A DNA stretch of 64,000 nucleotides from Bacteroidaceae bacterium (GCA_963657885.1 CAVKNZ010000001.1:55203-119202), one strand, 5' to 3'; counted from the first letter of the stretch, positions 41,789 to 64,000 are shown. Numbers and translations: made by a program. The notes: generated by a model not told the origin, from the letters alone.

Positions 41789-41925
41789 ATTGGTGCATTT
41801 TGGTGCATTTTTTGGTGCAAATAACAGCATTTAATCTTACATCGCAATACAAAAATAACGATAATATCGAAGTAATTTAGCATATATATTTATTGGTGCA
41901 CTTTGGTGCATTTTTTGGTGTAAAT
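41789..41925. repeat. Two copies about 100 bp apart of a 33-34 bp element, each made of three tandem TGGTGCA heptamers spaced 10-13 bp, in the promoter region of the downstream AlbA_2 gene
   Basis: Copy 1 at 41789-41822: TTGGTGCATTTTGGTGCATTTTTTGGTGCAAAT. Copy 2 at 41892-41925: TTGGTGCACTTTGGTGCATTTTTTGGTGTAAAT. Gene ATG at 41969. Confidence 0.7.
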
Positions 41926-41968
41926 TGTTTATTAATATGATAATATAAAGCTGCAGAAAGGAGCATTT

Positions 41969-43393
41969 ATGGCCTTACCAACAAATATAAATACAATTCT
42001 AAACCCTAATATTGTCGAAAGCGTTCGCATTGAACTTAAAGAAGGCTTCAACGTTGAAAGTATTATGCATACAATATGTGCTTTCGCTAACGATATCGAT
42101 AATTTTTGTGGCGGTTACATCATCATCGGAATTAGCGATAAAAATGAAGTAATTGGTTTTCCTCGAGATAAATTTGATAGTTTACAAAAAGAAGTATTTA
42201 GATATTCAAAAAAATGCATAGAGCCATCATATGTTCCTCAAATTGAATTAGTTAACTATGACGATAAAGATGTCGTTGTTATTTGGTGTCCTTCTGGAGA
42301 AGAGAAGGCTTATAAATGCTACGAGCATGTTTTCAAAGAAAAGAAGGAAACAAGATATCTATGCTATATTCGTAAAGGATCTTTAACAGTTGTTGCTTCT
42401 AGAGAAGAAGAAAAAGAATTATATAATCTTGCTAGTTATACTCCTTTTGATGATCGCGTAAATTATAAATACGATTTAACTGTCATTAATCGAAATATTT
42501 TAAAAGACTATTTGATGGAAACTCAATCTCATCTATTGTCTAATTTTGATAATCAAAGCACTGAAGATTTGCTTTTAGATTTAAGAGTTATTGGAGGCCC
42601 TAAGGAGGATTATCGTCCAAAAAATATCGCTTTATTGATGTTTACTGATAAGCCTTCAAATTTTATTCCCTATTCTTATATAGAATTAACGATTTTAAAA
42701 GATAAAGAAGGGGACGAAATCATTGAAAAAACTTTTGATTCTCCCTTATACAAACAATATATCGATTGCATGGATTATATCAAAAATAAAATCATTGAAA
42801 AAAAGACAATTAAGGTCGAAGGAGATTTTAAATCGACTGTTGTTTATAACTACTCTTATGAAGTGCTTGAAGAAGTTATCGCCAATGCGATTTTGCATAA
42901 GTCATATCAAATAAATGAGCCAGTTTCTGTAAGAGTGGAATCGGACAAGATTGAAATCACCAATGTTCCGGGCTTTGATAGAACGATAAGCGACTCTTCT
43001 ATTCAAGAACTTAAACCTAAATCAAAACGCTACACCTCTCGTCGAATTGCTGAATTCTTAAAAGAATTAGGCATTGTCGAAGCTAAAAATACTGGTTATC
43101 CGCGCATCGTAAAACGAAGCAAAGAAAATGGCTCCCCCTTACCTATCATAGAAATGAATAAAGAACGTGATTATGTCACAGTTATCATTCCTATACATAA
43201 AGCTTTCTTAAACGAAAATTTATCATTACGGGACCGTATTATTGACTATTTAAATGAAAAAGATATGAGCAAGACTGAACTTGCTAATGCGCTTGGCTAT
43301 CCGCGAGTTACAAATTCTTTGACGTATCAGTTAAATAAGTTAATTGATGAAAAGAAGGTTGCTGTTCATAATCGAAAATATTATCTTTGTTAA
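41969..43393 (+). CDS. AlbA_2 (Schlafen-like, 'divergent AAA/AAA-4') domain protein with HATPase_c_4 domain and C-terminal winged HTH; putative transcriptional regulator / 'ATP-binding protein'
   Basis: 474 aa. N-terminal ESVRIELKEGFNVESIMHTICAFANDIDNFCGGYIIIGISDKNEVIGF (AlbA_2). Central EEVIANAILHKSYQINEPVSVRVESDKIEITNVPGF (HATPase_c_4-like). C-terminal HTH (MSKTELANALGYPRVTNSLTYQLNKLIDEKKV). Confidence 0.7.
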   Translation: MALPTNINTILNPNIVESVRIELKEGFNVESIMHTICAFANDIDNFCGGYIIIGISDKNEVIGFPRDKFDSLQKEVFRYSKKCIEPSYVPQIELVNYDDKDVVVIWCPSGEEKAYKCYEHVFKEKKETRYLCYIRKGSLTVVASREEEKELYNLASYTPFDDRVNYKYDLTVINRNILKDYLMETQSHLLSNFDNQSTEDLLLDLRVIGGPKEDYRPKNIALLMFTDKPSNFIPYSYIELTILKDKEGDEIIEKTFDSPLYKQYIDCMDYIKNKIIEKKTIKVEGDFKSTVVYNYSYEVLEEVIANAILHKSYQINEPVSVRVESDKIEITNVPGFDRTISDSSIQELKPKSKRYTSRRIAEFLKELGIVEAKNTGYPRIVKRSKENGSPLPIIEMNKERDYVTVIIPIHKAFLNENLSLRDRIIDYLNEKDMSKTELANALGYPRVTNSLTYQLNKLIDEKKVAVHNRKYYLC

Positions 43394-43403
43394 TCTTAAT
43401 TAG

Positions 43404-45611
43404 TTAATTAAAATACAATAACGTATCTCGATGCAGTAGATATTCGCTTTGTTCAAACAGTGAATAGTTTATCTTTATATCAGTTGCTGAATCATATATT
43501 TCTTTTGTTGGATACAATGCTTTTATTTGACTGATAGTTTTTATGTTGTTGTCTTTATCTTTTAGTTCAGTTGTTTCACTTATAAGAGTATGAGTTTCAA
43601 CAGTTAATATGCCTAAGAAAGACGAATCATTTTTCAATGCATTTAAATCTGAATATGAATAATAACTTAAAGCGGGTTTACTAGAGAAAAGCATCAAAGT
43701 GAAATTTGATTTTGATAGGCGATAGCTAACTTGGATGCTATTTGGTTCGCCATTTTCTAAATCAATATAGAAAAGTAATTCATAACGGTTTGCTTCATTA
43801 ACAGTTAGTTTCTTGTTACTAGAATCAGCTTTTATAGAAATTGGTTTATCATCACCTATTGGATAAACTTGGTTGTCGTTATTTATAACTCCATTTCCGT
43901 TTGCGATTTGATTATTTAGAAAATCAATTAACGTTGATTCCATCGGAGTGAAGGTAAACGAAACTGTTGATGAGGTGACAAACTTAGAATATAAAAGCGA
44001 TAAAGTTTCGTCTTCTTCTAAAGAGGTATCGCGAGTGAAATAAAATGTTTTAGATTCTGTTACTGTTACAAAATTATGCCTATAGATGATTGATTCTGAG
44101 GCATCTTCATATTTATCTAATGAACCGCTTAAATGGGTGCCGGCTAAGCGATATTCATATTGTTTTCTAATGCCGATAACATAGACAAGAGGATAGCCGT
44201 TAATTGTGGCGTAGCCATATTCATCTGCGGTGTTTTTAGAGCCTATTACTTTTATATATTTATTTGTCGCATTAAAGGAGTTGACGGCATTTGTGACATT
44301 TGTTGTAGCTATAGTTTTATCATAGTCATCATGCGCGTGAGCAAAATATAGATCAAAGCCATAATAGCCTTCCTCTAATGACAAGTTCTTTATCGCTTGA
44401 TTGTCTAACAAGCTAGTCCAATTGCCTGACCAAGAGCCATTATAGTCTAAAGGGTCAACATCCAATTGGATTGAGAACGTTTCATCACTACTTATATAAA
44501 CGTTATTTGTGAAATAGTTTATCCCTCCAACAGTGTTATTACTTGTTTGTTCTAAAGGGATTGTATATCTATTTGGATAAGAAATTTCATCGTCTTGCTT
44601 CTTATTATAATTAGTTCCTGGATTAACTCTAAATTTCATAAAGGAGGTATACATATTATTAATAAGTTGAGGCTTTCCGCTGTTTTTCGAGGCAAAAACT
44701 GGATAAAGATAGATGGTGTTATCATTTAAGCTTGATCCATCGATCGCTATAGAAGTGCTTCCGGTCGCGGTTAAGTTATCAACATAAGATAGTGACGTTG
44801 AAGAAGTTATAACTTGATCGGTGGTGACATCTTGTACGCCGTAATCGCCAATTTTATAAGGCGTTCCGCTTATCGCGGCTCCGCCTTGCCCAACAAGAGT
44901 GCCACTTGTTTCTGTTTCATATTTATCCCATATGGTATAACGACTTCTTTCTTCCGCTAAAGCTTTATCATAGGTCCAACCGATAAATTCTGGACCAAAG
45001 CCAAGATAGTCTTTATATACTGATTGAGCAATTATTTTTGATAATTTTGAGATAGGGATGTTGTTTTCAGCTTCTATCATCACGTATTTGCTAGTTTCAA
45101 CGATATTTAACTCTTCATTAGGAAGAATATAACCTGTCCATCTTCTTTTTGGATGACGTTTTATAAGTTCAGTATCGTTATTATTAAAACTTAAATTCGC
45201 ACCTGTTGAAGATTCTACCGATAGATAATAATAAGATACATCTGTCCATGGATATTGAGGATTGTAGGTGACATTGCTAAAATCAGCTCCGCTTTCATTA
45301 GAATGTCTTAAGCAATAAGGCTCTTCGCTATTGTAGGGATTATCAACGTGCTCTGCGATTTCTAATGGATCAGTGACTGTGCTTCCATCTTCTTTTATTA
45401 ATTCTGAACCTGTTGAATAATATGGTGAAGCAAAGAAATAGACGCGGAAGACATTACTTTTATCGACGCTATTAAGATGGGCGTTTTGCCCATATGTATC
45501 GATATTTTCTTTCTTCACCTCTTTTTCAGGAAAAACAAACAAAGAAAAAGCTACTGATGGAACAGTTAGTAATAGTAGTGATGCTAATGTTAACAGTATG
45601 TATTTCTTCAT
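43404..45611 (-). CDS. Large secreted/surface protein of unknown function, carrying the shared N-terminal motif; last gene of the SipW-like operon
   Basis: 735 aa. N-terminus MKKYILLTLASLLLLTVPSVAFSLFVFPEKEVKKEN shares the F[AS]x[FW]VF...E[VI]K..N motif with the two upstream paralogous N-termini. S/T/N/Y-rich, consistent with a beta-rich extracellular protein. Confidence 0.5.
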   Translation of the reverse strand: MKKYILLTLASLLLLTVPSVAFSLFVFPEKEVKKENIDTYGQNAHLNSVDKSNVFRVYFFASPYYSTGSELIKEDGSTVTDPLEIAEHVDNPYNSEEPYCLRHSNESGADFSNVTYNPQYPWTDVSYYYLSVESSTGANLSFNNNDTELIKRHPKRRWTGYILPNEELNIVETSKYVMIEAENNIPISKLSKIIAQSVYKDYLGFGPEFIGWTYDKALAEERSRYTIWDKYETETSGTLVGQGGAAISGTPYKIGDYGVQDVTTDQVITSSTSLSYVDNLTATGSTSIAIDGSSLNDNTIYLYPVFASKNSGKPQLINNMYTSFMKFRVNPGTNYNKKQDDEISYPNRYTIPLEQTSNNTVGGINYFTNNVYISSDETFSIQLDVDPLDYNGSWSGNWTSLLDNQAIKNLSLEEGYYGFDLYFAHAHDDYDKTIATTNVTNAVNSFNATNKYIKVIGSKNTADEYGYATINGYPLVYVIGIRKQYEYRLAGTHLSGSLDKYEDASESIIYRHNFVTVTESKTFYFTRDTSLEEDETLSLLYSKFVTSSTVSFTFTPMESTLIDFLNNQIANGNGVINNDNQVYPIGDDKPISIKADSSNKKLTVNEANRYELLFYIDLENGEPNSIQVSYRLSKSNFTLMLFSSKPALSYYSYSDLNALKNDSSFLGILTVETHTLISETTELKDKDNNIKTISQIKALYPTKEIYDSATDIKINYSLFEQSEYLLHRDTLLYFN

Positions 45612-45615
45612 TTAT

Positions 45616-46383
45616 TTATACCTTTGCTAGGAAAAAGGAAATATCGATAGATGAGTTATTGATAGCCTCGATGTTACTTTTCATCTTCTCATTTAGCATC
45701 TTTTCTGAATGGAAATATGAAGGAGAAAAGGAGCCAGAATAATTCCTGGAGTTATATACTCCGTTAAATCGAGAATATTTAAAATCGATGGAAAAATGGT
45801 GATAGCTGACTAATTGTCCTCCTAATGGAGTGAATTCTAAAATCTTATTTGTGTAGACAATGTTATTTACGTTATCGACTTTTTCGATAAATGATGATGA
45901 TGAATCAGTGTCCAAGTTAGTTACTTGTTTAGGCGAGATTATATCTAAAATTGATGATGATTTAGGATAAGGAATCTCTTCTCCAGCAATTGGAATGAGA
46001 TTTACCCCGCGAGTATCACTATCTTTTAAAGTTAATTGTAAGTAAATCGCAAGCGGACCATTTTCATACATTGTAGGAGAAGTATATTCGATGATGAAAT
46101 TTCTTTTCTTTGTTGGATTATCGCTTCTAGCTAAATCGATGCTTTCATAACCAAGCTCCAAATGCGTTTTTAAACTTGTCTCCTCTATTTCATCTTTATA
46201 TGTTCCATTATCTAAATAGACAAGGCGCATTTCTCCATAGTCTTGGTTCTTTTCGATTTCTATATTGACTATATTGTTTGCCTTAACTTCTGTGTTTTTA
46301 AAAACAAATATCGCAAAACCACTTCCAATAAGAAGGACAGGAACAAGCAAGAAGTATAACGTTAACAAGATTTTCTTTCTCAT
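45616..46383 (-). CDS. Secreted protein of unknown function with the shared IGSGFAIFVF N-terminal motif
   Basis: 255 aa. N-terminus MRKKILLTLYFLLVPVLLIGSGFAIFVFKNTEVKANN. 4-nt start/stop overlap with the upstream signal peptidase gene. Confidence 0.5.
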   Translation of the reverse strand: MRKKILLTLYFLLVPVLLIGSGFAIFVFKNTEVKANNIVNIEIEKNQDYGEMRLVYLDNGTYKDEIEETSLKTHLELGYESIDLARSDNPTKKRNFIIEYTSPTMYENGPLAIYLQLTLKDSDTRGVNLIPIAGEEIPYPKSSSILDIISPKQVTNLDTDSSSSFIEKVDNVNNIVYTNKILEFTPLGGQLVSYHHFSIDFKYSRFNGVYNSRNYSGSFSPSYFHSEKMLNEKMKSNIEAINNSSIDISFFLAKV

Positions 46384-47357
46384 TTTTCTTTACCATCTTC
46401 TTCTTGAGCTATAACCTCTTTTTGCTCTATACATATCGCTTCGATATCTTTTTCTAAGATGAGCATGAAGCGGTGGTTATATGGTTTATTTAGTCGATCT
46501 AATAAGAAGGAATATAAGCCCATCATCACGAAAGCGACAAAGACAATGATGATGCCAATGTTAGACTGCATATAAGAGATGAAGTAGCCAAAGGCTAGAT
46601 TCTTTTCACCATGAAAGTGTTCGCTTTGATGGACCCCAACAATCAAATCTTTTTTAACTTTGATTTCGCCAGTTAATGATGATGAGTTTGCGTCACCTCT
46701 AAAGGTGTATAACGGTTCATTGTTTTCATCATATTCAACGTATATAAGTCGATGTACAATAGTGACATAGTTTCCTCCGTTGCTATCTTTTTGCATCTTA
46801 AAGGCGACGACATCAAATGGTTTGATGTTATTAATATATTCTTCTTTGTTGCTTATCGAAATATAGGCAAATTGAGGAATTCTATCAGCCTCATTAGGTT
46901 TACCATTTTCATCGAGAAGATAAGTGTTACCTTTATAGGCTCTTTCCATTGAATCAGTTTGAATGACTAAGACCGCCTTATCGCCTAACCACATCTGATC
47001 GCCACTAGCCTTGATGGATAAAGAGACGCCAATCATGATGGTAAAGTAGACAAATAACAAGGCGATGAGGCCATCACTGACTATTGAAATGATTCTATTT
47101 GTTCTTTTATTAGCCTTTATTTCTTTATCGATATCTACAAATGATGTCGATTTATTTTTCTTGAGTCTTTTATAGATATATTTTGATGCACTTTCTCGAA
47201 TTAGCTCATCATCAAGACCATATTCTAATGATCGTTTTTTCTCATGGAAGAAAAAGGCCGCGAGGATTATAAACGCGGCGCTGAAGAGGATAATTACCAA
47301 TATTGCGATTAGCAGTATATAAAGATTGATACCGCTAGATCTGATGAAATAGTCCAT
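46380..47357 (-). CDS. ER/archaeal-type signal peptidase I (S26B, SipW-like; Ser/His dyad) with two extra N-terminal TM helices and a C-terminal TM
   Basis: 325 aa. Box B LVIQTDSMERAY (compare SGSMEP). Box C FDVVAF (compare GDIVVF). Box D TIVHRLIYV (His, not the Lys of S26A). Box E FRGDANSS (compare KGDNN). C-terminal TM IGIIIVFVAFVMMGLYSFLL, as in SipW. Confidence 0.6.
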   Translation of the reverse strand: MDYFIRSSGINLYILLIAILVIILFSAAFIILAAFFFHEKKRSLEYGLDDELIRESASKYIYKRLKKNKSTSFVDIDKEIKANKRTNRIISIVSDGLIALLFVYFTIMIGVSLSIKASGDQMWLGDKAVLVIQTDSMERAYKGNTYLLDENGKPNEADRIPQFAYISISNKEEYINNIKPFDVVAFKMQKDSNGGNYVTIVHRLIYVEYDENNEPLYTFRGDANSSSLTGEIKVKKDLIVGVHQSEHFHGEKNLAFGYFISYMQSNIGIIIVFVAFVMMGLYSFLLDRLNKPYNHRFMLILEKDIEAICIEQKEVIAQEEDGKEK

Positions 47358-47395
47358 CTAGCTACCTCCCACGCGGCACTTTTTATTTGATGCGA

Positions 47396-48016
47396 TTATT
47401 TTGACAAGACTTCAACTTTGTATTGCACAACGCGCGTAACTGCGGCTGACACGACAGTTTTTAACGCAGTGTATTCTGCCTTCTTAGTTGGTTCTTTTCC
47501 CGTTTTATAAGCAAATGTTGCACTGTTCCAATCGAATGTTTTAGCATTTTCTCCTAGAGTAAATGTATAGACACCATTTGTGTCATCATTAGCCTTTGTT
47601 GAGCCTGCATAGTTAACATCGACATAATCATATAAATCCTTGCCGAGTGTTAACGTAACAGTCATTTGATAGTAGATTTTATCATTATCATGATCGATTG
47701 CATCAGGATCAGTTGTTTCCCTTTCCTTATACACAGTTGTTTCTTTTGCTCCAAGTTCTAAATAAATACCTTTGGCTTCAGCAGTGCTTGTAATTCCTAA
47801 TTCAGCCCTTTTAGCTGCGGTTTGATCAAAGACAATACTAAATTCGTCAGCAACTTGCTCAAACTCGCCAACATCAGCAAGCTTTGTTATCTTTGCAGAC
47901 AAGTTTTTTGTTTCAGTAATCTGCGTTCCGGAAAATACCCAAATTGAAAAACCTGATCCAATGACGGCGACTCCCGCCATAAGTGGTAATAAGCTTTTTA
48001 TTAAAGTTCTTTTCAT
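47396..48016 (-). CDS. Small secreted protein (206 aa), possible TasA-like matrix/fibre subunit; first gene of the SipW-like operon
   Basis: N-terminus MKRTLIKSLLPLMAGVAVIGSGFSIWVFSGTQITETKNLSAKI. Compare the B. subtilis TasA N-terminus LVGGGTWAAFNDIKS...ASGTLDLSAKEN. Strong SD (AAGGAGG) upstream. Confidence 0.45.
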   Translation of the reverse strand: MKRTLIKSLLPLMAGVAVIGSGFSIWVFSGTQITETKNLSAKITKLADVGEFEQVADEFSIVFDQTAAKRAELGITSTAEAKGIYLELGAKETTVYKERETTDPDAIDHDNDKIYYQMTVTLTLGKDLYDYVDVNYAGSTKANDDTNGVYTFTLGENAKTFDWNSATFAYKTGKEPTKKAEYTALKTVVSAAVTRVVQYKVEVLSK

Positions 48017-48288
48017 TTTCTAAACCTCCTTGTTTCGCTTAGTGCTCTTTTGTTTATTAAAAAAAGAAAAATCAGTCAACTATTTTGAGCTTCTATATTA
48101 ATGAAAGTCGTTTATTATCGAACTTTTTTCGCATAATTGATAGAAAAATTATGAGTCGATTTTTAGCTAAAAATATGAGCGAAAAAGACGCGATATTTAC
48201 TCATAAAACAACATTTATAAAAATAAAGAATATAATAAATGAGCAAATCATTTTGTATTAGATATTGATTTGCATTATCGTTATAGCC

Positions 48289-49128
48289 ATGAAATATATA
48301 GATGACTCATTTGAAGGCGAAAGATTGCTATTCGCATTAAAGAATTCGACGATTGATAATTGTCATTTTCTCTTTGGAGAATCTCCTTTAAAAGAGAGCA
48401 AAAATCTAAAGATAAGCAATACTACTTTCGAATGGAAATATCCGATGTGGTACGCATCTAATATTGAATGCGAAAACATCAAATTAACTAATGACGCTAG
48501 AAGCGGGATTTGGTATTGCTCAAATATAACAATTAAGAATTCGCTTATTGAAGCGCCTAAAACATTTAGAAGAGCGAAAGATGTTTACTTAGAAAATGTC
48601 GAATTTACTAATGCGAGCGAGACTTTTTGGAATTGTAAGGACATTAAAATTATCAATTCTAGCTTTAAAGGTGACTATCTATTGATGAATTCTAAAAATG
48701 TTCATATTGATAAGCTTCATCTAGAAGGAAACTACTTTTTTGATGGAGGAGAGAATTTAGAAATTTCTAATTCTTTCTTAGATAGTAAGGATGCATTTTG
48801 GAACTGTAAAAACGTAATAGTTAGAAACTCAGTCATTCATGGAGAATATATTGGTTGGAATAGCGAAAACATTACTTTTATTGACTGCGAAATCATTTCT
48901 CATCAAGGCTTTTGCTATATGAAGAATGTGAAATTAGTGAATACAAAAGTTTTAGATTCTGACCTCACATTTGAATATAGCGAAAATATCGACGCGGACA
49001 TTATTAGTAAAGTTCAATCTATAAAAAATCCATCATCTGGTGTCATCAAAGTTAAGGGAGTTGATGAACTCATTCTTGATGATAACTATGTAGACAGTAA
49101 GAAAACAAAAATCGTTATAGAACAATGA
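48289..49128 (+). CDS. Right-handed parallel beta-helix repeat protein (DUF3737-like)
   Basis: Start taken as MKYIDDSFEG at 48289; the ORF track gives 48265. Repeats about 22 aa long of the N-[IV]-x-[IV]-x-N-[ST] type (NITIKNSLI, DIKIINSSF, NLEISNSFL, NVIVRNSVI, NITFIDCEI, NVKLVNTKV). Confidence 0.5.
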   Translation: MKYIDDSFEGERLLFALKNSTIDNCHFLFGESPLKESKNLKISNTTFEWKYPMWYASNIECENIKLTNDARSGIWYCSNITIKNSLIEAPKTFRRAKDVYLENVEFTNASETFWNCKDIKIINSSFKGDYLLMNSKNVHIDKLHLEGNYFFDGGENLEISNSFLDSKDAFWNCKNVIVRNSVIHGEYIGWNSENITFIDCEIISHQGFCYMKNVKLVNTKVLDSDLTFEYSENIDADIISKVQSIKNPSSGVIKVKGVDELILDDNYVDSKKTKIVIEQ

Positions 49129-51665: not shown

Positions 51666-51744
51666 CGATTTCTCCTTTTTGTTGAAAAAATTTTCAGTGA
51701 AATAATTTTCAACTAAATAATATATCGATTATTTGCTTATAGCA

Positions 51745-51772
51745 AGAAAAAACCGATATGTTTCAATCGGTT
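51745..51772 (-). terminator. Rho-independent terminator of the 51795-52211 minus-strand gene
   Basis: On the minus strand: AACCGATTGAAACATATCGGTT stem-loop (7-bp stem) followed by TTTTTT. Seen as AAAAAACCGATATGTTTCAATCGGTT on the plus strand, 23 nt after the stop. Confidence 0.55.
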
Positions 51773-51794
51773 AATTCTTATGTAGCTAATTCTT

Positions 51795-52211
51795 TTATTT
51801 ATCTTTTGCTTCAACGTCGATGACTTCTTCTTTGGGTTCACGGCTTAGGGCAATTAAACCTAAAATGCCAGCGGCGGTGGAGAATTCCACGCCGGAAAGC
51901 ACGCCAAAGATGATGCCTAAGATATGTAACTTTTTACTTGGCTTGTTGAATGCTTTCTTTGAAACTACTAAGTTAACGATTGCAAATGCAAGCGTAAAGG
52001 CAAAGATAACTTCATAGATTACAATAGCAGCCACAAGAACTTCTCTATCGTAGGCGTTTCCAGCTGGATCAGTTAAGGTAACATCACCATTAAGAGCTGC
52101 ACCTAAGCTTGCACCGAAGATAATCATTCCTAATGCAATAAGAGCAACGTAAACAATAGAGATGATGAAGCTAACTTTGTAGAAAGTTTTCGATAATCTT
52201 TTTAAGGCCAT
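51795..52211 (-). CDS. Small hypothetical membrane protein (138 aa, 4 TM)
   Basis: ORF with SD upstream (AGGAGG), immediately downstream of pgm on the minus strand. Hydrophobic throughout. Confidence 0.45.
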   Translation of the reverse strand: MALKRLSKTFYKVSFIISIVYVALIALGMIIFGASLGAALNGDVTLTDPAGNAYDREVLVAAIVIYEVIFAFTLAFAIVNLVVSKKAFNKPSKKLHILGIIFGVLSGVEFSTAAGILGLIALSREPKEEVIDVEAKDK

Positions 52212-52215
52212 TCTT

Positions 52216-53901: not shown

Positions 53902-54058
53902 ACTTTCTTCCTTTCATTTTTATCGTTTTAATTCTAGCACATCGCTTCAACGTTTATCTTTGATAAGCTTAATAATATTAAATGCTTTCTCATTAACAAT
54001 GAAAATAATATAATATTTTCGTTATTTATTTGATATTTTCTTACACTTATTTATCACA

Positions 54059-55177: not shown

Positions 55178-55211
55178 GATTAAAAATTTGTTGTTACTTA
55201 TAAAAAATAAT

Positions 55212-55232
55212 GCCGAATATATCGGCTTTTTT
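55212..55232 (+). terminator. Candidate short rho-independent terminator after the 54059-55177 gene
   Basis: GCCGAATATATCGGC hairpin (5-bp GC-containing stem) followed by TTTTTT at 55227-55232. A-run on the 5' side could make it bidirectional. Confidence 0.4.
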
Positions 55233-55313
55233 AAAAATAATAGACTCTGATTTGGAAATGAAGTCCAAAATAGATAGTAAATTTATCTTATTTTTCACAA
55301 AGGAGCTTATTTT

Positions 55314-56642: not shown

Positions 56643-56689
56643 AAGAGCTACTTTCTAATATTATATTTAATATTTAGAGGTGCACTTTT

Positions 56690-57901
56690 ATGGACAATGA
56701 AATTTTTAGCTTAATTGAACAAGAAACTATTAGACAAAACGAAGGCATTGAGCTCATCGCAAGTGAGAACTATGTTAGCAAAGATGTCCGCTTGGCCGCG
56801 GGTTCAATTTTAACGAATAAATACGCGGAAGGCTATCCAAATAAAAGATATTACGGAGGTTGCGAATTCGTCGACAAAATCGAAGAAATCGCCATTGAAA
56901 GAGCTAAAAAATTATTTAACGTAAAATTTGCCAATGTTCAGCCTCATTCGGGTTCACAGGCTAACGCCGCGGCCTATCGAGCACTGCTTCCTGATGGAGG
57001 CAAGATTTTATCATTAACGCTTAACGATGGAGGACATCTAAGTCATGGAAGTCCGGTGTCATTTTCATCACATTTTTATAATTTCGTTTTCTATCCTTTA
57101 GGAAAAGATGCTCATCTAGATTATGACCTTCTTCTAGAAGTGGCGAAAAAAGAAAAACCGGATCTCATCCTTGCTGGTTACAGTGCCTATCCATTTACAA
57201 TCGACTTTAAACGCATCAAAGAAATATGCGATGTTGTCAGAGCGAAATTTATCGTTGATATGGCTCATATCGCAGGACTTGTTGCCTCAAACGAGCATCC
57301 TAGCCCAATTGGCTACGCCGATGTGGTGACATCTACAACACATAAGACCTTAAGAGGCCCTCGAGGCGGACTTATTCTTACTAACGATGAAGAATTAGCA
57401 AAAAAGATAAATTCCGCAGTGTTTCCATTCTATCAAGGAGGACCGCTTGAACACATAATTGCTGCGAAAGCGGTGTGCTTTAAAGAAGCTCTAGAACCAA
57501 GTTTTAAAGAATATATAAAAAATGTGAAAGAGAACACTCTTGCATGTGCGAAAACTTTTATATCATTAGGCGATAAAGCTTCACTTAGTGAAAATCATCT
57601 ATTTTTATTAAACACTCTTGAATCATTTAACCTTACAGGCTTGGACGCCCAGAAAAAGCTTGAAGAAATTGGCATAACTACGAATAAAAATATGCTACCT
57701 AATGACACATTAAAGCCAAATAAAACTTCTGGACTTCGCATCGGTTTCGCTGCGACTACAACTCGCGGAGCTACAAAAGAAGATGCGATTAAAATTGCTA
57801 CCTTAATACATAATTATTTAAAAGATTTAATAACTAAAGAAGAAGCTCAATCTATTGTTAAAGAAATAACTTCTTCTTGGAAAAAGATTGAAGAAATCTA
57901 G
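56690..57901 (+). CDS. glyA: Serine hydroxymethyltransferase
   Basis: 403 aa. LIASENYVS, PLP-lysine motif VVTSTTHKTLRGPRGG. Confidence 0.95.
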   Translation: MDNEIFSLIEQETIRQNEGIELIASENYVSKDVRLAAGSILTNKYAEGYPNKRYYGGCEFVDKIEEIAIERAKKLFNVKFANVQPHSGSQANAAAYRALLPDGGKILSLTLNDGGHLSHGSPVSFSSHFYNFVFYPLGKDAHLDYDLLLEVAKKEKPDLILAGYSAYPFTIDFKRIKEICDVVRAKFIVDMAHIAGLVASNEHPSPIGYADVVTSTTHKTLRGPRGGLILTNDEELAKKINSAVFPFYQGGPLEHIIAAKAVCFKEALEPSFKEYIKNVKENTLACAKTFISLGDKASLSENHLFLLNTLESFNLTGLDAQKKLEEIGITTNKNMLPNDTLKPNKTSGLRIGFAATTTRGATKEDAIKIATLIHNYLKDLITKEEAQSIVKEITSSWKKIEEI

Positions 57902-57915
57902 CAAGGAACGAAATC

Positions 57916-58122
57916 ATGAAAATCATCAAAGAAGCTAAAAACCCAACATTTAGAATCACCTGTGAATACTGCGGAACGATATTTGAATATCAGCAAAATG
58001 AATTAGGCTATCGACCTTGGTATCGTCATGGATTCATTTATTGCCCGCATTGTCATCGCCCTCTTAGACACGATCCAATCAATCGCGTCGACGATGTCAT
58101 CGATATTGAAGAACATAAATAA
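57916..58122 (+). CDS. Small zinc-ribbon protein (68 aa), C-x2-C...C-x2-C
   Basis: CEYCGTIF...YCPHCHRPL four-Cys ribbon. SD AAGGA upstream. 14 nt downstream of glyA. Confidence 0.4.
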   Translation: MKIIKEAKNPTFRITCEYCGTIFEYQQNELGYRPWYRHGFIYCPHCHRPLRHDPINRVDDVIDIEEHK

Positions 58123-58259
58123 TTATCTTTTTAATTACATTATTATTTTTAAAAAACATTGATTTAAACGATATTTTTTATTTACAAATTCCAAAAAATA
58201 CTAAAAATAGTTGAAATTGGAATTTTTCTTTTTCATATAATGATTTTAGATAAAAACAT

Positions 58260-59497
58260 ATGATATACAAAAGAACAATATTAGAATCAGTTATAAATTC
58301 AATAAATGAATATCCTGTAACCTTAATAACAGGAGCACGGCAAGTTGGTAAAACCACTTTAGTCTCATACTTTTTTGATAAAGGAATCGTTATCTATCTT
58401 TAGACGATTCTTCTTTATGTTATGAAGCTAAATCAAATCCAAAACTATTCTTAGAAAAGTATGGTAATCATTTGATTATTGACGAAATTCAAAAGGCTAA
58501 GGAATTATTTCCAGAAATTGAGCATTTAGTTAACAAAAAAAGATTAGAAGAAGGTTCTATAAAAGCTAATGGGATGTTTATTCTAACTGGCAGTCAAAAA
58601 TTTTCTTTTATGCGAGGCGTAAGTGAATCTCTTTCCGGAAGAGTAGGAATTATTGAATTAGAACCTTTATCTCAAGCGGAAATAAGAGGATGGAATGAAA
58701 TTCCTTTTATAGCTAATAACAATGAACTATTTAAAAAAAGTGAAGAAAGAGAATTAACTAATGACCAGTTATATTTATCCATACTTAGAGGCTTTTATCC
58801 TGCTAGATGGGAAATAGAAGATAAACCAATTCATAATTTTTTCTCTAACTATGTTAAGACTTATATTGAAAGAGACGTAGTTGAGTTAATCGCAATTAGA
58901 GATTTAACTAAATTTGAAAACTTTTTAAAGGCTATCGCTTCGTTAACTGGCGAAGAATATAACCCTAATGCAATTTCAAAAACAATCGGAATTGATAACA
59001 AAACCGTTGATGCGTGGCTTAATATTTTGATCGCTTTAAACTTAGTAACAATCTTAAATCCTTATTACGAAGATTCAATAAATAAGCGGATTGTCAAAAG
59101 CAAAAAGCTTTATTTCAACGATACCGGATTAGCTTGTTATTTAATTGGCGTCGATTCAGTAAGAACACTCAAAGCCTCATCTTTTAAAGGAAGGCTCGTG
59201 GAAACTTACATTCATAACGAAATTAGAAAATCGTTTATCAATAACTCAGTTTCCGCCCAGATGTTTTTCTATCGCGATAACAATCAAAACGAAATTGATT
59301 TTATCATCCTTAAAGATGGTGAATTATCGCTTGTAGAAGCAAAGTCTGGAAAACAATATGGTGTTAATGATGTAAAAAGTTTCAGACAATTAACAAATAG
59401 TAAATACAATATCGCTGGGCAGTGCATCGTTTGTAGAACAGATGATATTTATCGAATCAATTCATTGGTTTATGCTTATCCGATAAAATGCATCTAA
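58260..59497 (+). pseudogene. Frameshifted AAA_14/DUF4143 ATPase paralogue (1-nt deletion in a T-run near 58398-58401)
   Basis: Frame A from ATG 58260 encodes MIYKRTILESVINSINEYPVTLITGARQVGKTTLVSYFFDKGIVIY (Walker A) and hits TAG at 58401. Frame +2 continues YLSLDDSSLCYEAKSNPKLFLEKYGNHLIIDEIQKAKE... to 59497. It is co-linear with the intact paralogue at 62635-63873 (YVTLDDYSNRLL...LIIDEIQKAVE). Confidence 0.55.
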
Positions 59498-59521
59498 ATA
59501 TTAATTAAATGTAAAACGATA

Positions 59522-59563
59522 AAATGTCGCTTTATTTGTCGCTTTAAATGTCGCTTTATTTTT
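59522..59563. repeat. 42-bp element: three 12-bp-period tandem TGTCGCTTTA units. Direct-repeat copy A, abutting the stop of the AlbA_2 gene
   Basis: AAATGTCGCTTTATTTGTCGCTTTAAATGTCGCTTTATTTTT. Identical copy at 60957-61000 on the other side of the gene. Confidence 0.75.
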
Positions 59564-60911
59564 ATATGCTTTTAAGAACTTGCCAACTGCCTGTTTTCTT
59601 TGAACCTGTTCTACTGACCGCCCCGATTGAAATAAGTTTTTTTAAGCATCTTTGAACTGTTCTTCGATTGATATTTCCTTTTTCGGCGAGTTCTATCTGC
59701 GTTTGTTTAGGGTTTTCTTTTAAAGAGTTTAAAACCTTGGTTTCAGTTTTAGATAATTTATCTTTTATGGTATTATCGGTTTTTTTATTTCCACTTTTTC
59801 CTTTTCGATAGAAGATAAAGGAAAAGCCATCGCTATAAGTTGTATAACTTGTTTTGACGTTATTGGCTTTGCAAGCTGCATATACCTTTTTAAATCCGCT
59901 TCCAAACATCTCCACATCTTTGCATTTATATAATGTATTGAGGATCAATTTGTTTCTAGGTTGGCTTTTTCTATTTGAATTAACAAACATATCAGGATTT
60001 AAATTCGCTGGGAATTCACCAGGATTATAGATTTCTATCATCGTGGGTGTTATATCTATTTCGTTTTCAGTTACTCCTCGATAATTCGCGTGAGCGAATG
60101 AATTAACAACTATTTCTCTTATCGCTTCAACTGGTACTTCTGGGATTTCTTTTCTTGCGATGTTTTCACCTAGTTCGACCCGCCAATCCATTTTCTCTTT
60201 TATGTATGAATTGGCATAACGTATAAGGTTATAGATGTTATCTTCCACTCTTCTTATATCTGAGAAATTAATCCTTTCATCGCTAACGTATGTGGCGATT
60301 TTTAATACGACAGGTTTTTTGCTCGAGAAAAGATAAAACCCCGCGTTAGTTAAAAAGTTATTTTCTAATAAGCCTAGACCAGTTAATAGAGCTTCTTCAT
60401 CATATATGCTCAATTCATCTAATCGACCGCAGGAAGTAGCTTCATCGTAAAATGAACGCAAAGCGATATGATCAACACTTTCTAAGCCGTATTTAGTTAA
60501 ATTGTTTTCCCATTTTGATGAAAAGTCTGTTGAAAACAAAATGCTTCTTAGCTCATCAGGAGTCATTCTTTCCGATCTATCAACAACTCGTTTGTAATAT
60601 ATTCCAAAGGATGAGTATGGTTTTTCTGAGCCGTTAAAATCAACTTTTATGCACATCTTATTATCTAGCGTTACTTCTTTGATTGTTGGATAAATTATTG
60701 GCAGTATAGCTTCTTTGCAAGTTCTAGCGATATCATCTAAGGTATGAGAGCCAATTTCTTGGCCACATACATCACCATTGGGCTTAACTCCAAAATAAAG
60801 CGTGCCAGATCCATGCTTATTTAAAATCGCGCATATATCATCCATTGCTTCTTTTATTTCACTCGTGGATTTTTTAAATTCAAGTTGTTCGTTTTCTCGT
60901 CCTAAGTTCAT
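59562..60911 (-). CDS. AlbA_2 (Schlafen-like) + HATPase_c_4 + C-terminal winged-HTH protein; paralogue of 41969-43393
   Basis: 449 aa. ENEQLEFKKSTSEIKEAMDDICAILNKHGSGTLYFGVKPNGDVCGQEIG (AlbA_2). REIVVNSFAHANYRGVTENEIDITPTMIEIYNPGEF (HATPase_c_4-like). C-terminal HTH TQIELAEKGNINRRTVQRCLKKLISIGAV. SD AGGAGA upstream. Confidence 0.7.
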   Translation of the reverse strand: MNLGRENEQLEFKKSTSEIKEAMDDICAILNKHGSGTLYFGVKPNGDVCGQEIGSHTLDDIARTCKEAILPIIYPTIKEVTLDNKMCIKVDFNGSEKPYSSFGIYYKRVVDRSERMTPDELRSILFSTDFSSKWENNLTKYGLESVDHIALRSFYDEATSCGRLDELSIYDEEALLTGLGLLENNFLTNAGFYLFSSKKPVVLKIATYVSDERINFSDIRRVEDNIYNLIRYANSYIKEKMDWRVELGENIARKEIPEVPVEAIREIVVNSFAHANYRGVTENEIDITPTMIEIYNPGEFPANLNPDMFVNSNRKSQPRNKLILNTLYKCKDVEMFGSGFKKVYAACKANNVKTSYTTYSDGFSFIFYRKGKSGNKKTDNTIKDKLSKTETKVLNSLKENPKQTQIELAEKGNINRRTVQRCLKKLISIGAVSRTGSKKTGSWQVLKSI

Positions 60912-60956
60912 ATTAAACTGTTCTCTCCTGCATTTATTATAGCGCGATGAAAAGAA

Positions 60957-61000
60957 AAATGTCGCTTTATTTGTCGCTTTAAATGTCGCTTTATTTTTTC
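60957..61000. repeat. Direct-repeat copy B of the 3x TGTCGCTTTA element, about 45 bp upstream of the AlbA_2 gene start (its promoter region)
   Basis: AAATGTCGCTTTATTTGTCGCTTTAAATGTCGCTTTATTTTT, identical to 59522-59563 in the same orientation. Confidence 0.75.
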
Positions 61001-61080
61001 CTTTTCTCTATCTCGTTAAAAACAGTAGACATCTAATGCTATCAGTGTGGTTTGTTTACAGTCTTCTTTCAATCAGATTA

Positions 61081-62436
61081 TTAAAAGTCGTCGTTATTAT
61101 GCTCTAAGGCAAAAGTTAGATAATGGGGAATAGTAATTATTCCGTTTTCTTCTCCGATGTTATATTCGCCTATTTTTATCAATTTCACTTTCCCATAATG
61201 ATCAGGATGTTTCATGATGGTTTTGCTCGATTTTGTATTTCCGGTTGTAGATTTAGCTTCAATTAGAGTTGCATAGCCATCATAAGATATAACAAAATCA
61301 ATTTCCAAACCGCTTTCTTTCGCGTAATAGTAAGCGTCAATATCTGCTTTATATAGCGAATCGAAAACTATAGCTTCATAGATTGCACCTTTGCCTTGAC
61401 CTAAATTGTTATTTAATATCGCTCTTATTGTATCTATTCCATACATCGATGTGACTATTCCTATGTCTGTTGGAAATAGTTTAAATTGTGACGTTATTGC
61501 TTCACCGAATAATGGTAGAGAAGGCACTTCAACGTTGTAGACTTTTTTAACAATATGAGCTTGTCTTAAATATTCGATTGCGTCATTTTTATCATATTGT
61601 TTGCCAGTTTGAATTTTGCTGACAATATATCTTTTATTTTCTTTAGCTAAAAAGACTGGCATTAAATCGAAAGCATTTTCGATTCTAGCCATCTCACTTT
61701 TGTTAAAAATAGGCTTACCATCCTTACTTTTTCTTCTTCCGAAATCTGTTTTCATTTCAAAAACGATATTGTTAAGGACTTTATAAGCCTCTTTTATGCT
61801 CTTTGTTTCTAAATATGTGGCAATTACTTTTGGGAAGCCACCTATTGAAGCGTATTTTAAAAATAATTCTTTATATAAATTGTGTATGTTAGGATCTATT
61901 TTTTCTCTATTAGCAAAACAATTTATTAGATATTCAATTTGCTTTTCATCATAGCCATTTGCCCAAAGAAATTCTTCGAAGTCCATTGTTTTCATCTCAT
62001 ATATATCTTCTGAACCTGTTGGCGCGGGGCTATTATCACCTTTTACGTAGCTGTTTATGCCTAAAAGCGATCCGCTGGCGATGACAGAATAACGGCCATC
62101 TTCTTTGAATGATTTCAAAGACAATCTCGCTTTTGGACAGTCTTGTATTTCATCGAAAAATATCAACGTTGTCTCTGGTTTTATATTAGAATGCGGAAAT
62201 CTCAATGAAATATTTGATATGAGATCGTCGACATCTAAACTTTTTTCAAAATCAGCGGAATATTCTGGGTGCGTCCAAAAATTTATCATTATTAGTTTGA
62301 GATTATTTCGCTTAGCGAATTCCTTAATGCTTTCAGTTTTTCCACATTGCCTAATGCCGACAATCAAAGCAGGTATTTTGTCTTTTTTCTTTAACCAAGC
62401 ATCTAACTGCCTGTCTATTTTTCTACGGTAATACAT
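61081..62436 (-). CDS. AAA_14 ATPase with C-terminal DUF4143 domain ('ATP-binding protein')
   Basis: 451 aa. Walker A ALIVGIRQCGKTES. Walker B TLIFFDEIQD. C-terminal DUF4143-like region (KLFPTDIGIVTSMYG). Confidence 0.7.
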   Translation of the reverse strand: MYYRRKIDRQLDAWLKKKDKIPALIVGIRQCGKTESIKEFAKRNNLKLIMINFWTHPEYSADFEKSLDVDDLISNISLRFPHSNIKPETTLIFFDEIQDCPKARLSLKSFKEDGRYSVIASGSLLGINSYVKGDNSPAPTGSEDIYEMKTMDFEEFLWANGYDEKQIEYLINCFANREKIDPNIHNLYKELFLKYASIGGFPKVIATYLETKSIKEAYKVLNNIVFEMKTDFGRRKSKDGKPIFNKSEMARIENAFDLMPVFLAKENKRYIVSKIQTGKQYDKNDAIEYLRQAHIVKKVYNVEVPSLPLFGEAITSQFKLFPTDIGIVTSMYGIDTIRAILNNNLGQGKGAIYEAIVFDSLYKADIDAYYYAKESGLEIDFVISYDGYATLIEAKSTTGNTKSSKTIMKHPDHYGKVKLIKIGEYNIGEENGIITIPHYLTFALEHNNDDF

Positions 62437-62490
62437 TTAGCGAACCCTTTCTGAAAGTATTAGTTTTCTACTTAAAATATAAGAAAAACG

Positions 62491-62607
62491 AAAGGACTTT
62501 TCAAGCAATTTGTAAGAAATTCCGAGGGACTTTTCAGCCTGTTTGTAAGAATTTCCGAGCGACTTTCGACCCACTTTGTAAGAAATTCCGAGGGACTTTT
62601 TACTCTG
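62491..62607. repeat. About 3.5 tandem copies of a 33-bp direct repeat in the promoter region of the 61081-62436 gene
   Basis: Full units at 62509-62541 (TTTGTAAGAAATTCCGAGGGACTTTTCAGCCTG), 62542-62574 (TTTGTAAGAATTTCCGAGCGACTTTCGACCCAC) and 62575-62607 (TTTGTAAGAAATTCCGAGGGACTTTTTACTCTG). Partial unit at 62491-62508. Contiguous, no spacers. Confidence 0.75.
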
Positions 62608-62634
62608 AATTTTAAGATAAAAGTTTTTTAACTT

Positions 62635-63873
62635 TTAAATACTTTTCACTGGTACAATTAGCACATTTTCTGACAATGCACTTAAAGATTCAGAGGTGCA
62701 GACAATGCATCCTCTTCCTAATTCACAATGGCTACATTCTAGTTCTTTGAAGCTTGAAACATCGTTTAACGTATGCGTATCTCCGTATTTAGCTTCAACT
62801 GCATATAGCTTTCCTTGTTTAATGAAAACTAAATCAATTTCATGTTGATAGTAGTCACGGTAATAGTAAAATTGGGTTTCATCGCCGGCGTTATCGTAAC
62901 TCTTTTTGATTTCGTTTATGACAAATGTTTCAAATAATCTTCCTTTTAGGAAACTACGTGCTAACGTTTGCTTAGAATCTATACCAAGAAGATAGCAAGC
63001 AACCCCGGTGTCAAAGAAGTAAACTTTTGGAGTTCTTACAACTCTTTTAGTCCAGGAATATTCATAGTAGGGATAAATTAGATGGATGATTCCAGTTTTT
63101 ATCATTATGGAAATCCAAGTTTTTATACTCGTTGAAGATATGCCAATTTGCTTGGCGAGATTATCATAGTTTAGCTCTTGGCCTGTTAATGAGGCTATAA
63201 GGACTAAGAGATTATAAAATTTTGTTTCATCTTTTAATTCGATTAACTCTCTTACATCTTTTTGCAAATATGTTGAAACATAAGATGAATAAAAAATAGA
63301 TCTTTTTAAACCTTCATCATCGAATAATTCAGGCAGTTGCCCTTTTAGGATTAAATCAAGGACATCGCTTTGACTAAAAGATAGATGTTCACTTCTTTGA
63401 TGTATTTTTATTGGATCTGGTAAAAATGGAATATTATCTCTAGAAAAAATTTCGCTCATTGATAAAGTCGACATTTCTAATAAAGCAGCTCTTCCAGCGA
63501 GCGACTCTTTAGCTCTTTCCAATAAATCTTTGCGGCTTGAGCCAGAAAGAATATACATTCCGTTCGCAGCTTTATTGCCTTCAAGTCGGCGTTTTTCATT
63601 TACGATAAATTCGATTTCTTCAAATAACTCTACTGCCTTTTGGATTTCATCGATAATTAATGGAGCAGGGTGATTTGCTAAAAATGATCTAGGATCGCTT
63701 TGAGCTAACAATCTATTAGAATAATCATCCAATGTAACATAACAGAAGCCTTGCTTTTCATATATTTCAGTCAACAACGTCGTTTTACCAACTTGTCTAG
63801 GTCCGGTTAAAATCACGCAAGGGAAGTGCTTTAGCGAATAATCAATTACTTCTTTTATATGCCTTTTTATCAT
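62635..63873 (-). CDS. AAA_14 ATPase with C-terminal DUF4143 domain ('ATP-binding protein'); intact paralogue of the frameshifted 58260-59497 copy
   Basis: 412 aa. Walker A CVILTGPRQVGKTTLL. Walker B LIIDEIQKAVE. DUF4143-like C-terminus with KVYFFDTGVACYLLGI. Confidence 0.75.
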   Translation of the reverse strand: MIKRHIKEVIDYSLKHFPCVILTGPRQVGKTTLLTEIYEKQGFCYVTLDDYSNRLLAQSDPRSFLANHPAPLIIDEIQKAVELFEEIEFIVNEKRRLEGNKAANGMYILSGSSRKDLLERAKESLAGRAALLEMSTLSMSEIFSRDNIPFLPDPIKIHQRSEHLSFSQSDVLDLILKGQLPELFDDEGLKRSIFYSSYVSTYLQKDVRELIELKDETKFYNLLVLIASLTGQELNYDNLAKQIGISSTSIKTWISIMIKTGIIHLIYPYYEYSWTKRVVRTPKVYFFDTGVACYLLGIDSKQTLARSFLKGRLFETFVINEIKKSYDNAGDETQFYYYRDYYQHEIDLVFIKQGKLYAVEAKYGDTHTLNDVSSFKELECSHCELGRGCIVCTSESLSALSENVLIVPVKSI

Positions 63874-63881
63874 TTTTCAAA

Positions 63882-63925
63882 CCTCAACTTCGGAATTTCC
63901 AAAGTTCAACTTCGGATTTTCATAA
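63882..63925. repeat. Two tandem copies of a 21-22-bp direct repeat (CAACTTCGGAWTTTC core) immediately upstream of the 62635-63873 gene
   Basis: TCAACTTCGGAATTTCCAAAG / TTCAACTTCGGATTTTCATAAG at 63882-63925. The window ends at 64000, so the array may be incomplete. Confidence 0.4.
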
Positions 63926-64000
63926 GTAGTATATTATTTTTTACCTTCAAAAGTGAAAAAATTCATCGCGATGTTAGTTAAAGACAGAGATGAATATTTC

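Follow-up and report, generated by a model that had tools for sequence, protein, structure and literature searches.

Several paralogous ATP-binding-protein genes on one bacterial chromosome each adjoin a short tandem-repeat array of their own, which raises the question of what these private arrays are for. The genes lie in a 64,000-nucleotide (nt) stretch of DNA from a Bacteroidaceae bacterium (GCA_963657885.1 CAVKNZ010000001.1:55203-119202; this whole stretch is the window of the analysis), where an earlier sequence-only reading had described a 22-kb island of such genes and had taken their arrays for autoregulatory operators or recombination sites. The arrays exist, keep their place from family to family and among orthologues, and are aligned with the promoter; at about 150 homologous loci, from two families, their position is retained while their sequence diverges. 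Comparison of these sequences makes it likely that each gene by itself forms an autoregulated module, whose product would bind its private array cooperatively and block RNA polymerase. Our confidence in such a module is higher for the genes of the AlbA_2 family and lower for those of the DUF4143 family.

Arrays beside the ATP-binding-protein genes

A Pfam scan of the window finds two AlbA_2/HATPase_c_4 genes, with a winged helix-turn-helix (wHTH; MarR/HTH_24) in the second gene only, one ATPase_2 (Arch_ATPase)/DUF234 gene, and three AAA_14/DUF4143 genes, one of them frameshifted, in agreement with the domain calls made earlier. The AlbA_2 proteins are of the COG2865 type, which annotation lists as 'putative DNA binding domain-containing protein'. 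PADLOC places the DUF4143 genes in PDC-S01 and the DUF234 gene in PDC-S27. Taking as a strong intergenic tandem repeat any Tandem Repeats Finder (TRF) match that scores at least 44 outside genes in the whole window, we find six, and all six adjoin the ATP-binding-protein genes. The four arrays first described are present at or near the positions given for them; a fifth element, upstream of the DUF234 gene, had been overlooked. The array motifs are rare elsewhere in the loci fetched for comparison and do not recur at other promoters of the window, and orthologues of the genes carry arrays as well. The window has a G+C content of 33%, and TRF lists numerous weak short repeats in it, as might be expected if the arrays were a chance product of AT-rich, low-complexity intergenic DNA; however, shuffle controls do not give the observed counts, every strong intergenic repeat stands at these genes, and the homologous loci share a fixed period and position, so that we regard chance as excluded. 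A known structured RNA was also rejected, the window having no Rfam match at gathering score.

The second AlbA_2 gene encodes a protein of 449 amino acids (aa) that matches PF04326 (E 2.2e-18), PF13749 (E 2.1e-11), HTH_24 (3.4e-09) and MarR (5.9e-08), and whose C-terminal domain also matches TrmB. Its AF2 model (predicted local distance difference test, 79) has three parts: an N-terminal part similar to the N-terminal domains of SLFN12, SLFN5, SLFN13 and SAMD9, a middle part similar to the ATP-binding CA domain of histidine kinases, and a C-terminal wHTH that superposes on the structures of MarR, SlyA and RovA. The nearest solved relative of the model is 3lmm, which is uncharacterised, and no known recombinase fold was found in the model. 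The promoter of the gene carries three copies of TGTCGCTTTA with a period of 12 nt, and a consensus promoter scan recognizes GCGACA-18-TATAAT at 60965-60936, in which the last GCGACA is the -35 hexamer. A second copy of the array lies beyond the stop codon; six of the seven exact matches to TGTCGCTTTA in the window belong to these two arrays.

The first AlbA_2 gene encodes a 474-aa protein (PF04326, SLFN_AlbA_2, E 5.3e-17; PF13749, HATPase_c_4, E 5.7e-09) and is preceded by two 43-nt blocks, 88% identical to each other, in each of which three copies of TTGGTGCA are spaced 10 and 12 nt apart. This motif occurs six times in the window against 1.2 expected, and five of the six occurrences are in the arrays. 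The last unit of the proximal array, GGTGTA, lies 16 nt before GATAAT, which is the -35 position when the spacing is read from the sequence; the consensus promoter scan made no call for this promoter. The only terminator-like call near the gene, at 41895-41912, consists of the TTGGTGCA repeat pairing with itself (GGTGCACTTTGGTGCA, then T-rich sequence), and we rejected it as a terminator, since it is probably a by-product of the array.

Table 1. Coordinates of the genes and arrays in the window and of the homologous loci (prefix L) referred to in the text.
Sequence	Feature	Position (nt)	Strand	Remark
Window	Distal 3x TTGGTGCA array	41780..41822 (block); 41790-41819 (repeats)	+	Upstream of 41969
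Window	Proximal 3x TTGGTGCA array	41883..41925 (block); 41893-41922 (repeats)	+	Upstream of 41969
Window	AlbA_2 (Schlafen-like)/HATPase_c_4 protein, 474 aa	41969..43393	+	Pfam
Window	Arch_ATPase (ATPase_2)/DUF234 protein, 457 aa	50292..51665	-	PADLOC PDC-S27
Window	Operator-like element, TGAAAATT x2 (period 15) in inverted repeat GTTGAAAA/TTTTCAAC	51683..51721	-	Just before the ribosome-binding site
Window	Frameshifted AAA_14/DUF4143 pseudogene	58260..59497	+	Long open reading frame 58472-59497
Window	Second array copy, 43 nt, AAAGCGACA x3	59521..59563	-	Convergent intergenic gap
Window	AlbA_2/HATPase_c_4/MarR-type wHTH protein, 449 aa	59562..60911	-	Pfam
Window	Promoter array, AAAGCGACA x3 (gene orientation), period 12	60936..60998	-	With promoter-like site 60965-60936
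Window	AAA_14/DUF4143 protein, 451 aa	61081..62436	-	PADLOC PDC-S01
Window	33-nt-period array, core AAAAGTCCCTCGGAATTTCTTAC (gene orientation)	62476..62607	-	Upstream of 61081-62436
Window	AAA_14/DUF4143 protein, 412 aa, different subfamily	62635..63873	-	PADLOC PDC-S01
Window	Pair of TCCGAAGTTGA units, 22 nt apart	63874..63957	-	Includes promoter-like site; upstream of 62635-63873
L010	Array, >25 units CAGTGCCA(N3-4)	1-250		Runs off contig start
L005	Array, 10 units	~740-850		
L020	Array, 3 + 12 units	~5760-5950		
L043	Array, 12 units	~5820-5960		
L024	AlbA_2 gene bracketed by host repeats	5775-7466		
L033	AlbA_2 gene bracketed by host repeats	17-1964		
L060	AlbA_2 gene bracketed by host repeats	5603-7533		
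L079	AlbA_2 gene bracketed by host repeats	5649-7556		
L174-L176	AlbA_2 gene bracketed by host repeats	~2710-4700		
L004, L009, L013, L015, L020, L023, L061, L074, L169	Co-clustered genes			Each gene with a different array of its own

Arrays and recognition helices across the AlbA_2 family

When genomes were scanned with aligned homologues of the 449-aa protein, 80 loci (36-71% identity) were returned, in at least seven phyla, namely Firmicutes, Synergistota, Spirochaetota, Bacteroidota, Proteobacteria, Actinobacteriota and Chloroflexota, and nearly all of these loci have repeats just upstream of the gene. At least three copies of a 6-mer, counted on either strand between positions -160 and -15, are present in 58 of 76 loci, compared with 64 of 430 upstream regions of control open reading frames (ORFs) in these loci; the odds ratio is 18 (p 3e-26). 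This statistic was adopted because an exact 7-mer undercounted degenerate and inverted sites; even so, the 7-mer separates the targets (40%) from control ORF upstream regions (4.8%) and random windows (4.2%). The spacing of same-strand copies has a sharp peak at 12 nt (64 cases), followed by 11 and 21 nt. In the clade closer to the window protein the arrays run head-to-tail with 3 to >25 units, and across homologues the copy number ranges from 2 to >25 (the longest are listed in Table 1). A clade at 42-46% has sites at fixed distances before the ATG (AGTGAC at -60, GTCACT at both -48 and -27), and elsewhere the sites lie between the -10 box and the ribosome-binding site (RBS).

The arrays are phased with the promoter. 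Among 68 homologous loci with a strong -10 box, 41 have a repeat core whose end is 16-18 nt upstream of that box (exactly 17 nt in 35 of them), which identifies the proximal repeat as the -35 element, and a second peak of this distance at 29 nt lies one 12-nt period further upstream. The subfamily of the first AlbA_2 gene of the window shows similar behaviour. Alignment-based scans for its 474-aa product and for the 412-aa DUF4143 protein yielded 13 and 3 loci, respectively; single-protein scans of viral contigs with these two proteins gave no match. Homologues of the 474-aa protein were found at 44-81% identity: orthologues in other genomic contexts (L168-170, 73-76% identical) have 3x TTGGTGC in the same position, homologues at 48% have 4x GCCCATTTTT, and homologues at 44% (Amedibacterium) have 3x AGTCGTGAGTT between the -10 box and the RBS.

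Repeat cores differ from one AlbA_2 lineage to another (GTGACA, GCGACA in the window, GTGCCA, GGGACA, TGGACA, GATAAAT and GGTCAT), and they do so together with the recognition helix of the protein. In an alignment of 77 homologues the key residue is the equivalent of R417, within the helix NRRTVQR: all seven proteins with K at this position, which belong to two separate clades, have at least two copies of GGACA upstream, compared with none of the 64 with R, and in the six with S, M or P the repeats lack an xGACA core altogether. Helices of the form KTV-R go with TGACA, [ST]L-R, TV-R or NR-R with CGACA, and RS[AV]R or KSLR with TGCCA. Among pairs of loci, the sharing of upstream 6-mers follows wHTH identity (Spearman 0.47, partial coefficient 0.43) but neither that of the AlbA_2 domain (0.09) nor that of the middle region (-0.03). 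This correspondence is our main evidence that the array sequence of AlbA_2 genes matches the specificity of their own wHTH, and it suggests that each protein recognizes its own array.

The same observations bear on the possibility that the arrays are generic promoter architecture that the gene's own product does not read, such as stacked -35-like hexamers, UP-like elements, host-factor sites, or slippage tracts that tune or phase-vary expression. Many of the cores do resemble TTGACA (GTGACA, GCGACA), one core coincides with the -35 hexamer, and copy number varies between homologues over the full range given above. However, the cores differ among paralogues of one genome, some are unlike any -35 hexamer (GATAAAT, GGTCAT, AGTCGTGAGTT, GCCCATTTTT), promoters of the same-locus controls have no such arrays, and four samples with the same protein have an identical 3-unit array. 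Private cores and their co-variation with the recognition helix contradict generic architecture, which we consider decidedly unlikely.

Arrays of the DUF4143 and DUF234 families

The intact DUF4143 genes of the window match PDC-S01 through different models (PDLC04786, 2.5e-116, for 61081-62436; PDLC04790, 6e-99, for 62635-63873), the second of which also matches the frameshifted gene (4.6e-76). The 451-aa protein has conserved Walker A/B and PD-(D/E)XK residues (D380...E393-x-K395); G27, R29, G32, K33, D95, E96, E378, D380, E393 and K395 are invariant in the DUF4143 alignments A3 and A4. The AF2 model of this protein (predicted template modelling score, 0.80) is nearest to the archaeal AAA+ protein 2fna and to subunits of ORC (ORC4/5). 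Secondary structure points to a wHTH around residues 245-322, N-terminal to the PD-(D/E)XK domain. Upstream of the gene, a 33-nt unit is repeated in 3.7 (about four) copies at 62480-62607, with a promoter-like TTGAAA-17-TATATT (62504-62476) inside the last, degenerate unit. The 412-aa gene is abutted by two copies of a 22-nt unit (63874-63927), which lie between the ATG and the -10 box of a promoter-like TTCACT-18-TATACT (63957-63928). A weak inverted repeat, AAATTCCAA/TTGGAATTT, is all that lies upstream of the third gene. Its N-terminal 47 codons run up to a stop near 58401 and the rest continues in another frame, the shift falling near 58383-58400, directly after the Walker A region (GARQVGKTT); because the same frameshift is present in an independent metagenome contig (L001), this is a genuine pseudogene or split gene and not a sequencing error, and the gene is probably inactive.

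The DUF4143 paralogues as a whole are too divergent for a locus scan with one alignment; a metagenome scan with a narrower alignment returned 80 loci, whose products are 29-65% identical to the 451-aa protein. At least three copies of an 8-mer within 200 nt upstream are found in 37 of 72 of these loci, compared with 7 of 134 controls, and 96 of 118 spacings in the arrays are 32 or 33 nt, as in the 33-mer of the window. The units consist of a core of about 20 nt, e.g. AAAAGTCGTTGGAAAAATGT, TCCGATTTTATTCC or CTCATGAAAATGT, and, after it, a variable stretch of about 13 nt, and the window unit AAAAGTCCCTCGGAATTTCTTAC belongs to the same motif class. Orthologues 71% identical to the 451-aa protein (L163-167), in two unrelated contexts, have 3x GAAAAGTCGCTCCGAATTT at 33 nt. 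The last unit abuts or overlaps the promoter and in L115, L124 and L128 lies between the -35 and -10 boxes. Most members of the 412-aa subfamily have an inverted pair, CCGACTA...TAGTCGG, bracketing the -10 box and the transcription start site, and some have a direct pair in the same place, as in the window. A CRISPR array was rejected as an account of the 33-mers: the units are contiguous, with only the variable stretch of about 13 nt between conserved cores, and there are no spacers of CRISPR length.

The DUF234 protein (PDC-S27 model PDLC04984, 8e-45; PF01637, 4.4e-19; PF03008, 7.1e-09) has an upstream element with relatives in three homologous loci (L061, L190 and L191), where a direct or inverted pair of the motif CACTGAA, related to the TGAAAATT element, precedes the RBS.

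Another role conceivable for the arrays is that of iterons, or of sites resembling origins or centromeres, on which the wHTH or ORC-like AAA+ protein would load for replication or partition, following plasmid Rep-iteron, archaeal Orc1/Cdc6-ORB or ParR-parC. In iteron Rep and archaeal Orc1/Cdc6-ORB systems, the gene of a wHTH protein adjoins multiple sites of its own at helical-turn spacing. In the Omega repressor of pSM19035 and in ParR-parC, a small protein of ribbon-helix-helix fold binds, in a cooperative manner, short tandem repeats that vary in number, are direct or inverted, and have periods of 7 and 11 bp. The repeats overlap promoters, which results in autoregulation, and these plasmid-borne systems also serve as centromeres. 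The present genes are similar in having direct repeats at helical-turn spacing beside the gene of a wHTH protein, in the match of the DUF4143 model to 2fna and ORC4/5, in the occurrence of both direct and inverted arrangements, as in iteron plasmids, and in a weak match of the DUF234 protein to the orc1/cdc6 family TIGR02928, which at 31.7 bits is below the cut-off of 181. However, they are chromosomal, lie among housekeeping genes in several copies per genome, and have no Rep, Par, partition or plasmid gene nearby; Pfam finds no Rep families, and no plasmid match was found for 58.1-64 kb. Their proteins contain nuclease domains (in DUF4143 a C-terminal PD-(D/E)XK nuclease), the DUF4143 period is 33 nt, and the arrays coincide with the -35 box, the -10 box or the leader and not with an evident AT-rich unwinding element. 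The GC skew has no origin-like switch at the arrays. A role in replication or partition is consequently very improbable.

Probable autoregulation, possible mobility and genomic setting

In the autoregulated module that we favour, the protein would combine enzymatic domains with its own DNA-binding wHTH. The enzymatic part would be a Schlafen-like AlbA_2 domain and a GHKL-like HATPase_c_4 domain in the AlbA_2 genes, and an ORC-like AAA+ ATPase and a PD-(D/E)XK nuclease in the DUF4143 and DUF234 genes, for which we infer that the protein's own predicted wHTH is the array reader. Several protomers would assemble head-to-tail, and cooperatively, on units set whole helical turns apart, at 12 nt in the AlbA_2 family and at 33, 22 or 11 nt in the DUF4143 family. 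The promoter-proximal unit would form the -35 hexamer, the spacer or the -10 box, or lie in the transcribed leader, so that a filled array would exclude or block RNA polymerase and thereby hold the amount of a potentially toxic enzyme low and buffered. The positions of the arrays are those of repressor operators, relative to predicted promoters; binding, its cooperativity, repression as its sign, and derepression on infection or stress are what we infer. Catalytic-type residues of the AlbA_2 domain (E6, E8, E11, E18 and D60), like those of DUF4143 given above, are conserved, which, together with the harm done by related active proteins, is consistent with a need for tight control. AlbA_2 domains are nuclease effectors of Schlafen and SAMD9 proteins and are linked to bacterial defence islands, and the AlbA_2 domain of Avs9 kills Escherichia coli (PMC12680541).

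Several points weigh against this interpretation. The promoters are predicted from consensus matches only, and a proximal site on the -35 box is also compatible with autoactivation of the class-II type. The 474-aa protein has a divergent C-terminus in which Pfam finds no wHTH. The co-variation counts ignore phylogeny and represent about two independent R-to-K events. For the DUF4143 genes, the earlier claim of gene-specific operators rests on conservation and position, as does the case for self-recognition, and gains nothing from co-variation of protein and motif: a crude correlation of motif with domain gave no signal, and the comparison of helix sequences with motifs recovers clade structure only. 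Finally, arrays of 10 to >25 units, and an exact array copy after the stop codon, as in the window and in L169/170, exceed the needs of a simple repressor.

Beyond an operator role, the arrays could serve as assembly platforms that hold an inactive enzyme oligomer, either the Schlafen-like nuclease or the ORC-like AAA+/PD-(D/E)XK nuclease, on its own promoter. A trigger, which may be foreign nucleic acid, loss of ATP, DNA damage or competition for DNA, would free the enzyme and at the same time derepress the gene, so that one gene may constitute a circuit of sensor, effector and regulator. The array may also be a recombination handle that moves gene and operator as a unit, which would account both for the exact array copy found past the stop codon and for those single-gene insertions, described below, that lie between host duplications. 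We regard this extended reading as rather unlikely.

The second AlbA_2 gene is flanked by its array on both sides: the 43-nt blocks at 59521-59563 and 60956-60998 are 100% identical and 1435 nt apart, one on the promoter side and the other overlapping the stop codon by 2 nt. Such a layout would be expected if the arrays were recombination or attachment sites and gene plus array a small mobile cassette, in which case the two copies would be attL/attR-like and stem from an integration event at a resident array, or else be substrates of excision. The duplication is perfect and limited exactly to the array, with no similarity between the flanks, and the array-gene-array layout is also found in L061, L068 and L169/170. 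In L169 (2930-4470) and L170, which are 73% homologues of the 474-aa protein, an identical 33-nt array of 3x TTGGTGC stands before the gene and directly after its stop codon, the same layout as at 59521-60998 of the window, though in a different subfamily. In addition, AlbA_2 genes in L024, L033, L060, L079 and L174-176 lie between direct repeats, 40-172 nt long, of flanking host sequence (93.6-96.3% identical in L024, L033, L060 and L079, the cases aligned by blastn); the repeat in L033 includes the 3' part of a tRNA-Asn gene, and another includes the 3' end of a host gene. These units of 1.6-1.85 kb enclose a single AlbA_2 gene and no recombinase. Exact flanking repeats of at least 20 nt occur in 3 of 62 targets and 1 of 241 control ORFs, and the genes are patchily distributed across phyla, often near tRNAs, integrases or transposases.

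On the other side, a downstream array is found in only about 4 of 72 loci, the norm being a single upstream array phased with the promoter; the duplications of host sequence exclude the array (L024, L060); and the cassette contains no recombinase, nor was a recombinase domain found in the window genes at 58-64 kb. The downstream array of L169/170 precedes an AAA_11/AAA_12-DUF2726 helicase-like gene, which in L169 fits co-regulation. A 1457-nt homologue contig (L193) is not circular; as it has neither terminal overlap nor an array, a circular episome was rejected. Mobility of the gene would, moreover, be compatible with an operator role of its array. Of the two functions first proposed for the arrays, operator and recombination site, the comparison thus favours the operator for the AlbA_2 genes, and recombination gains minor, indirect support; as the primary function of the arrays we consider recombination unlikely.

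An operator read by the gene's own product has precedents. MarR-type and other wHTH autorepressors resemble the C-terminus of the 449-aa protein, and their sites overlap their own -35 and -10 boxes, as is predicted here. The present genes differ in having a head-to-tail array of 3 to >25 units with a 12-nt period, in many clades, in place of one or two palindromes, and in a wHTH that is fused to a 380-aa body of Schlafen-like and GHKL-like enzyme domains and is not a small dedicated regulator. AbiEi-type antitoxins, and wHTH regulators of defence loci such as BrxR and CapW, are wHTH proteins of defence or abortive-infection modules that use repeats to repress their own promoters. These are dedicated regulators, separate from the effector, that use inverted repeats, whereas here the putative effector would itself be the regulator. 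TrlG of Photorhabdus laumondii has the same two-domain body, AlbA_2 plus HATPase_c_4, as the AlbA_2 proteins of the window; it restricts growth, is mutated away under selection and is patchily distributed (PMC7554251). It differs in having no fused wHTH, in the separate small regulator gene trlR of its operon, and in that no repeat array has been described for it.

AAA_14/DUF4143 (PDC-S01) is reported to be the fourth commonest predicted defence system of prokaryotes and the top single locus in rumen genomes (PMC12988326, PMC13356809); PDC-S01 and PDC-S27 count as "guilt-by-embedding" candidates, and most PDCs await experimental validation (PMC12988326). The papers that we found on these two systems describe neither DNA-sequence specificity nor cis elements, and full-text searches on the family names returned no account of upstream arrays or DNA-sequence specificity. 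That genes are autoregulated by way of repeated operators is well known in principle; the part that appears to be new is the family-wide occurrence of 12-nt and 33-nt arrays on enzyme-wHTH fusions that are among the commonest defence candidates, along with an apparently readable correspondence between helix and core in the AlbA_2 family. If the autoregulated module is real, each protein has a defined ligand for biochemical and structural work, activators can be sought with a simple reporter assay, and a 12-nt or 33-nt promoter array becomes a cis-signature that would improve annotation and separate subfamilies. The helix-to-core code (R/K for T/G etc.) would likewise provide natural orthogonal repressor-operator pairs.

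The island proposed at the outset holds as a contiguous cluster at 58.1-64 kb. A single contiguous 22-kb defence island was rejected, since housekeeping genes intervene between the paralogues, namely UDP-galactopyranose mutase (glf), an aminotransferase, phosphoglucomutase, glutamine synthetase (glnA) and SHMT. Directly after the first AlbA_2 gene, four successive ORFs on the minus strand (43404-48016; 735, 255, 325 and 206 aa) have no Pfam match, and the 735-aa ORF has no PADLOC or NCBIfam match either. In many unrelated genomes, DUF4143, DUF234 or AAA_14 genes lie a few kb from AlbA_2/HATPase_c_4 genes (Table 1), and in L061 all three kinds of gene stand side by side; as each gene has its private array, the clustering seen in the window is recurrent.

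Two contigs from metagenome SRR13434591 match the window, and each ends inside one of the two 43-nt array copies (L001 at window position ~59550, L162 at ~60969), as expected if a duplicated array breaks short-read assembly; many database homologues are on contigs of 1.4-3 kb. Contig L162 (1-823) extends the window by 696 nt past position 64000. The next gene there is divergent from the 412-aa DUF4143 gene, and its N-terminus is similar by eye to AbiEi antitoxins. This AbiEi-like gene has an array of its own, 4x TGGCAATGTAAA, and the cluster of self-operated genes therefore goes on past the end of the window.

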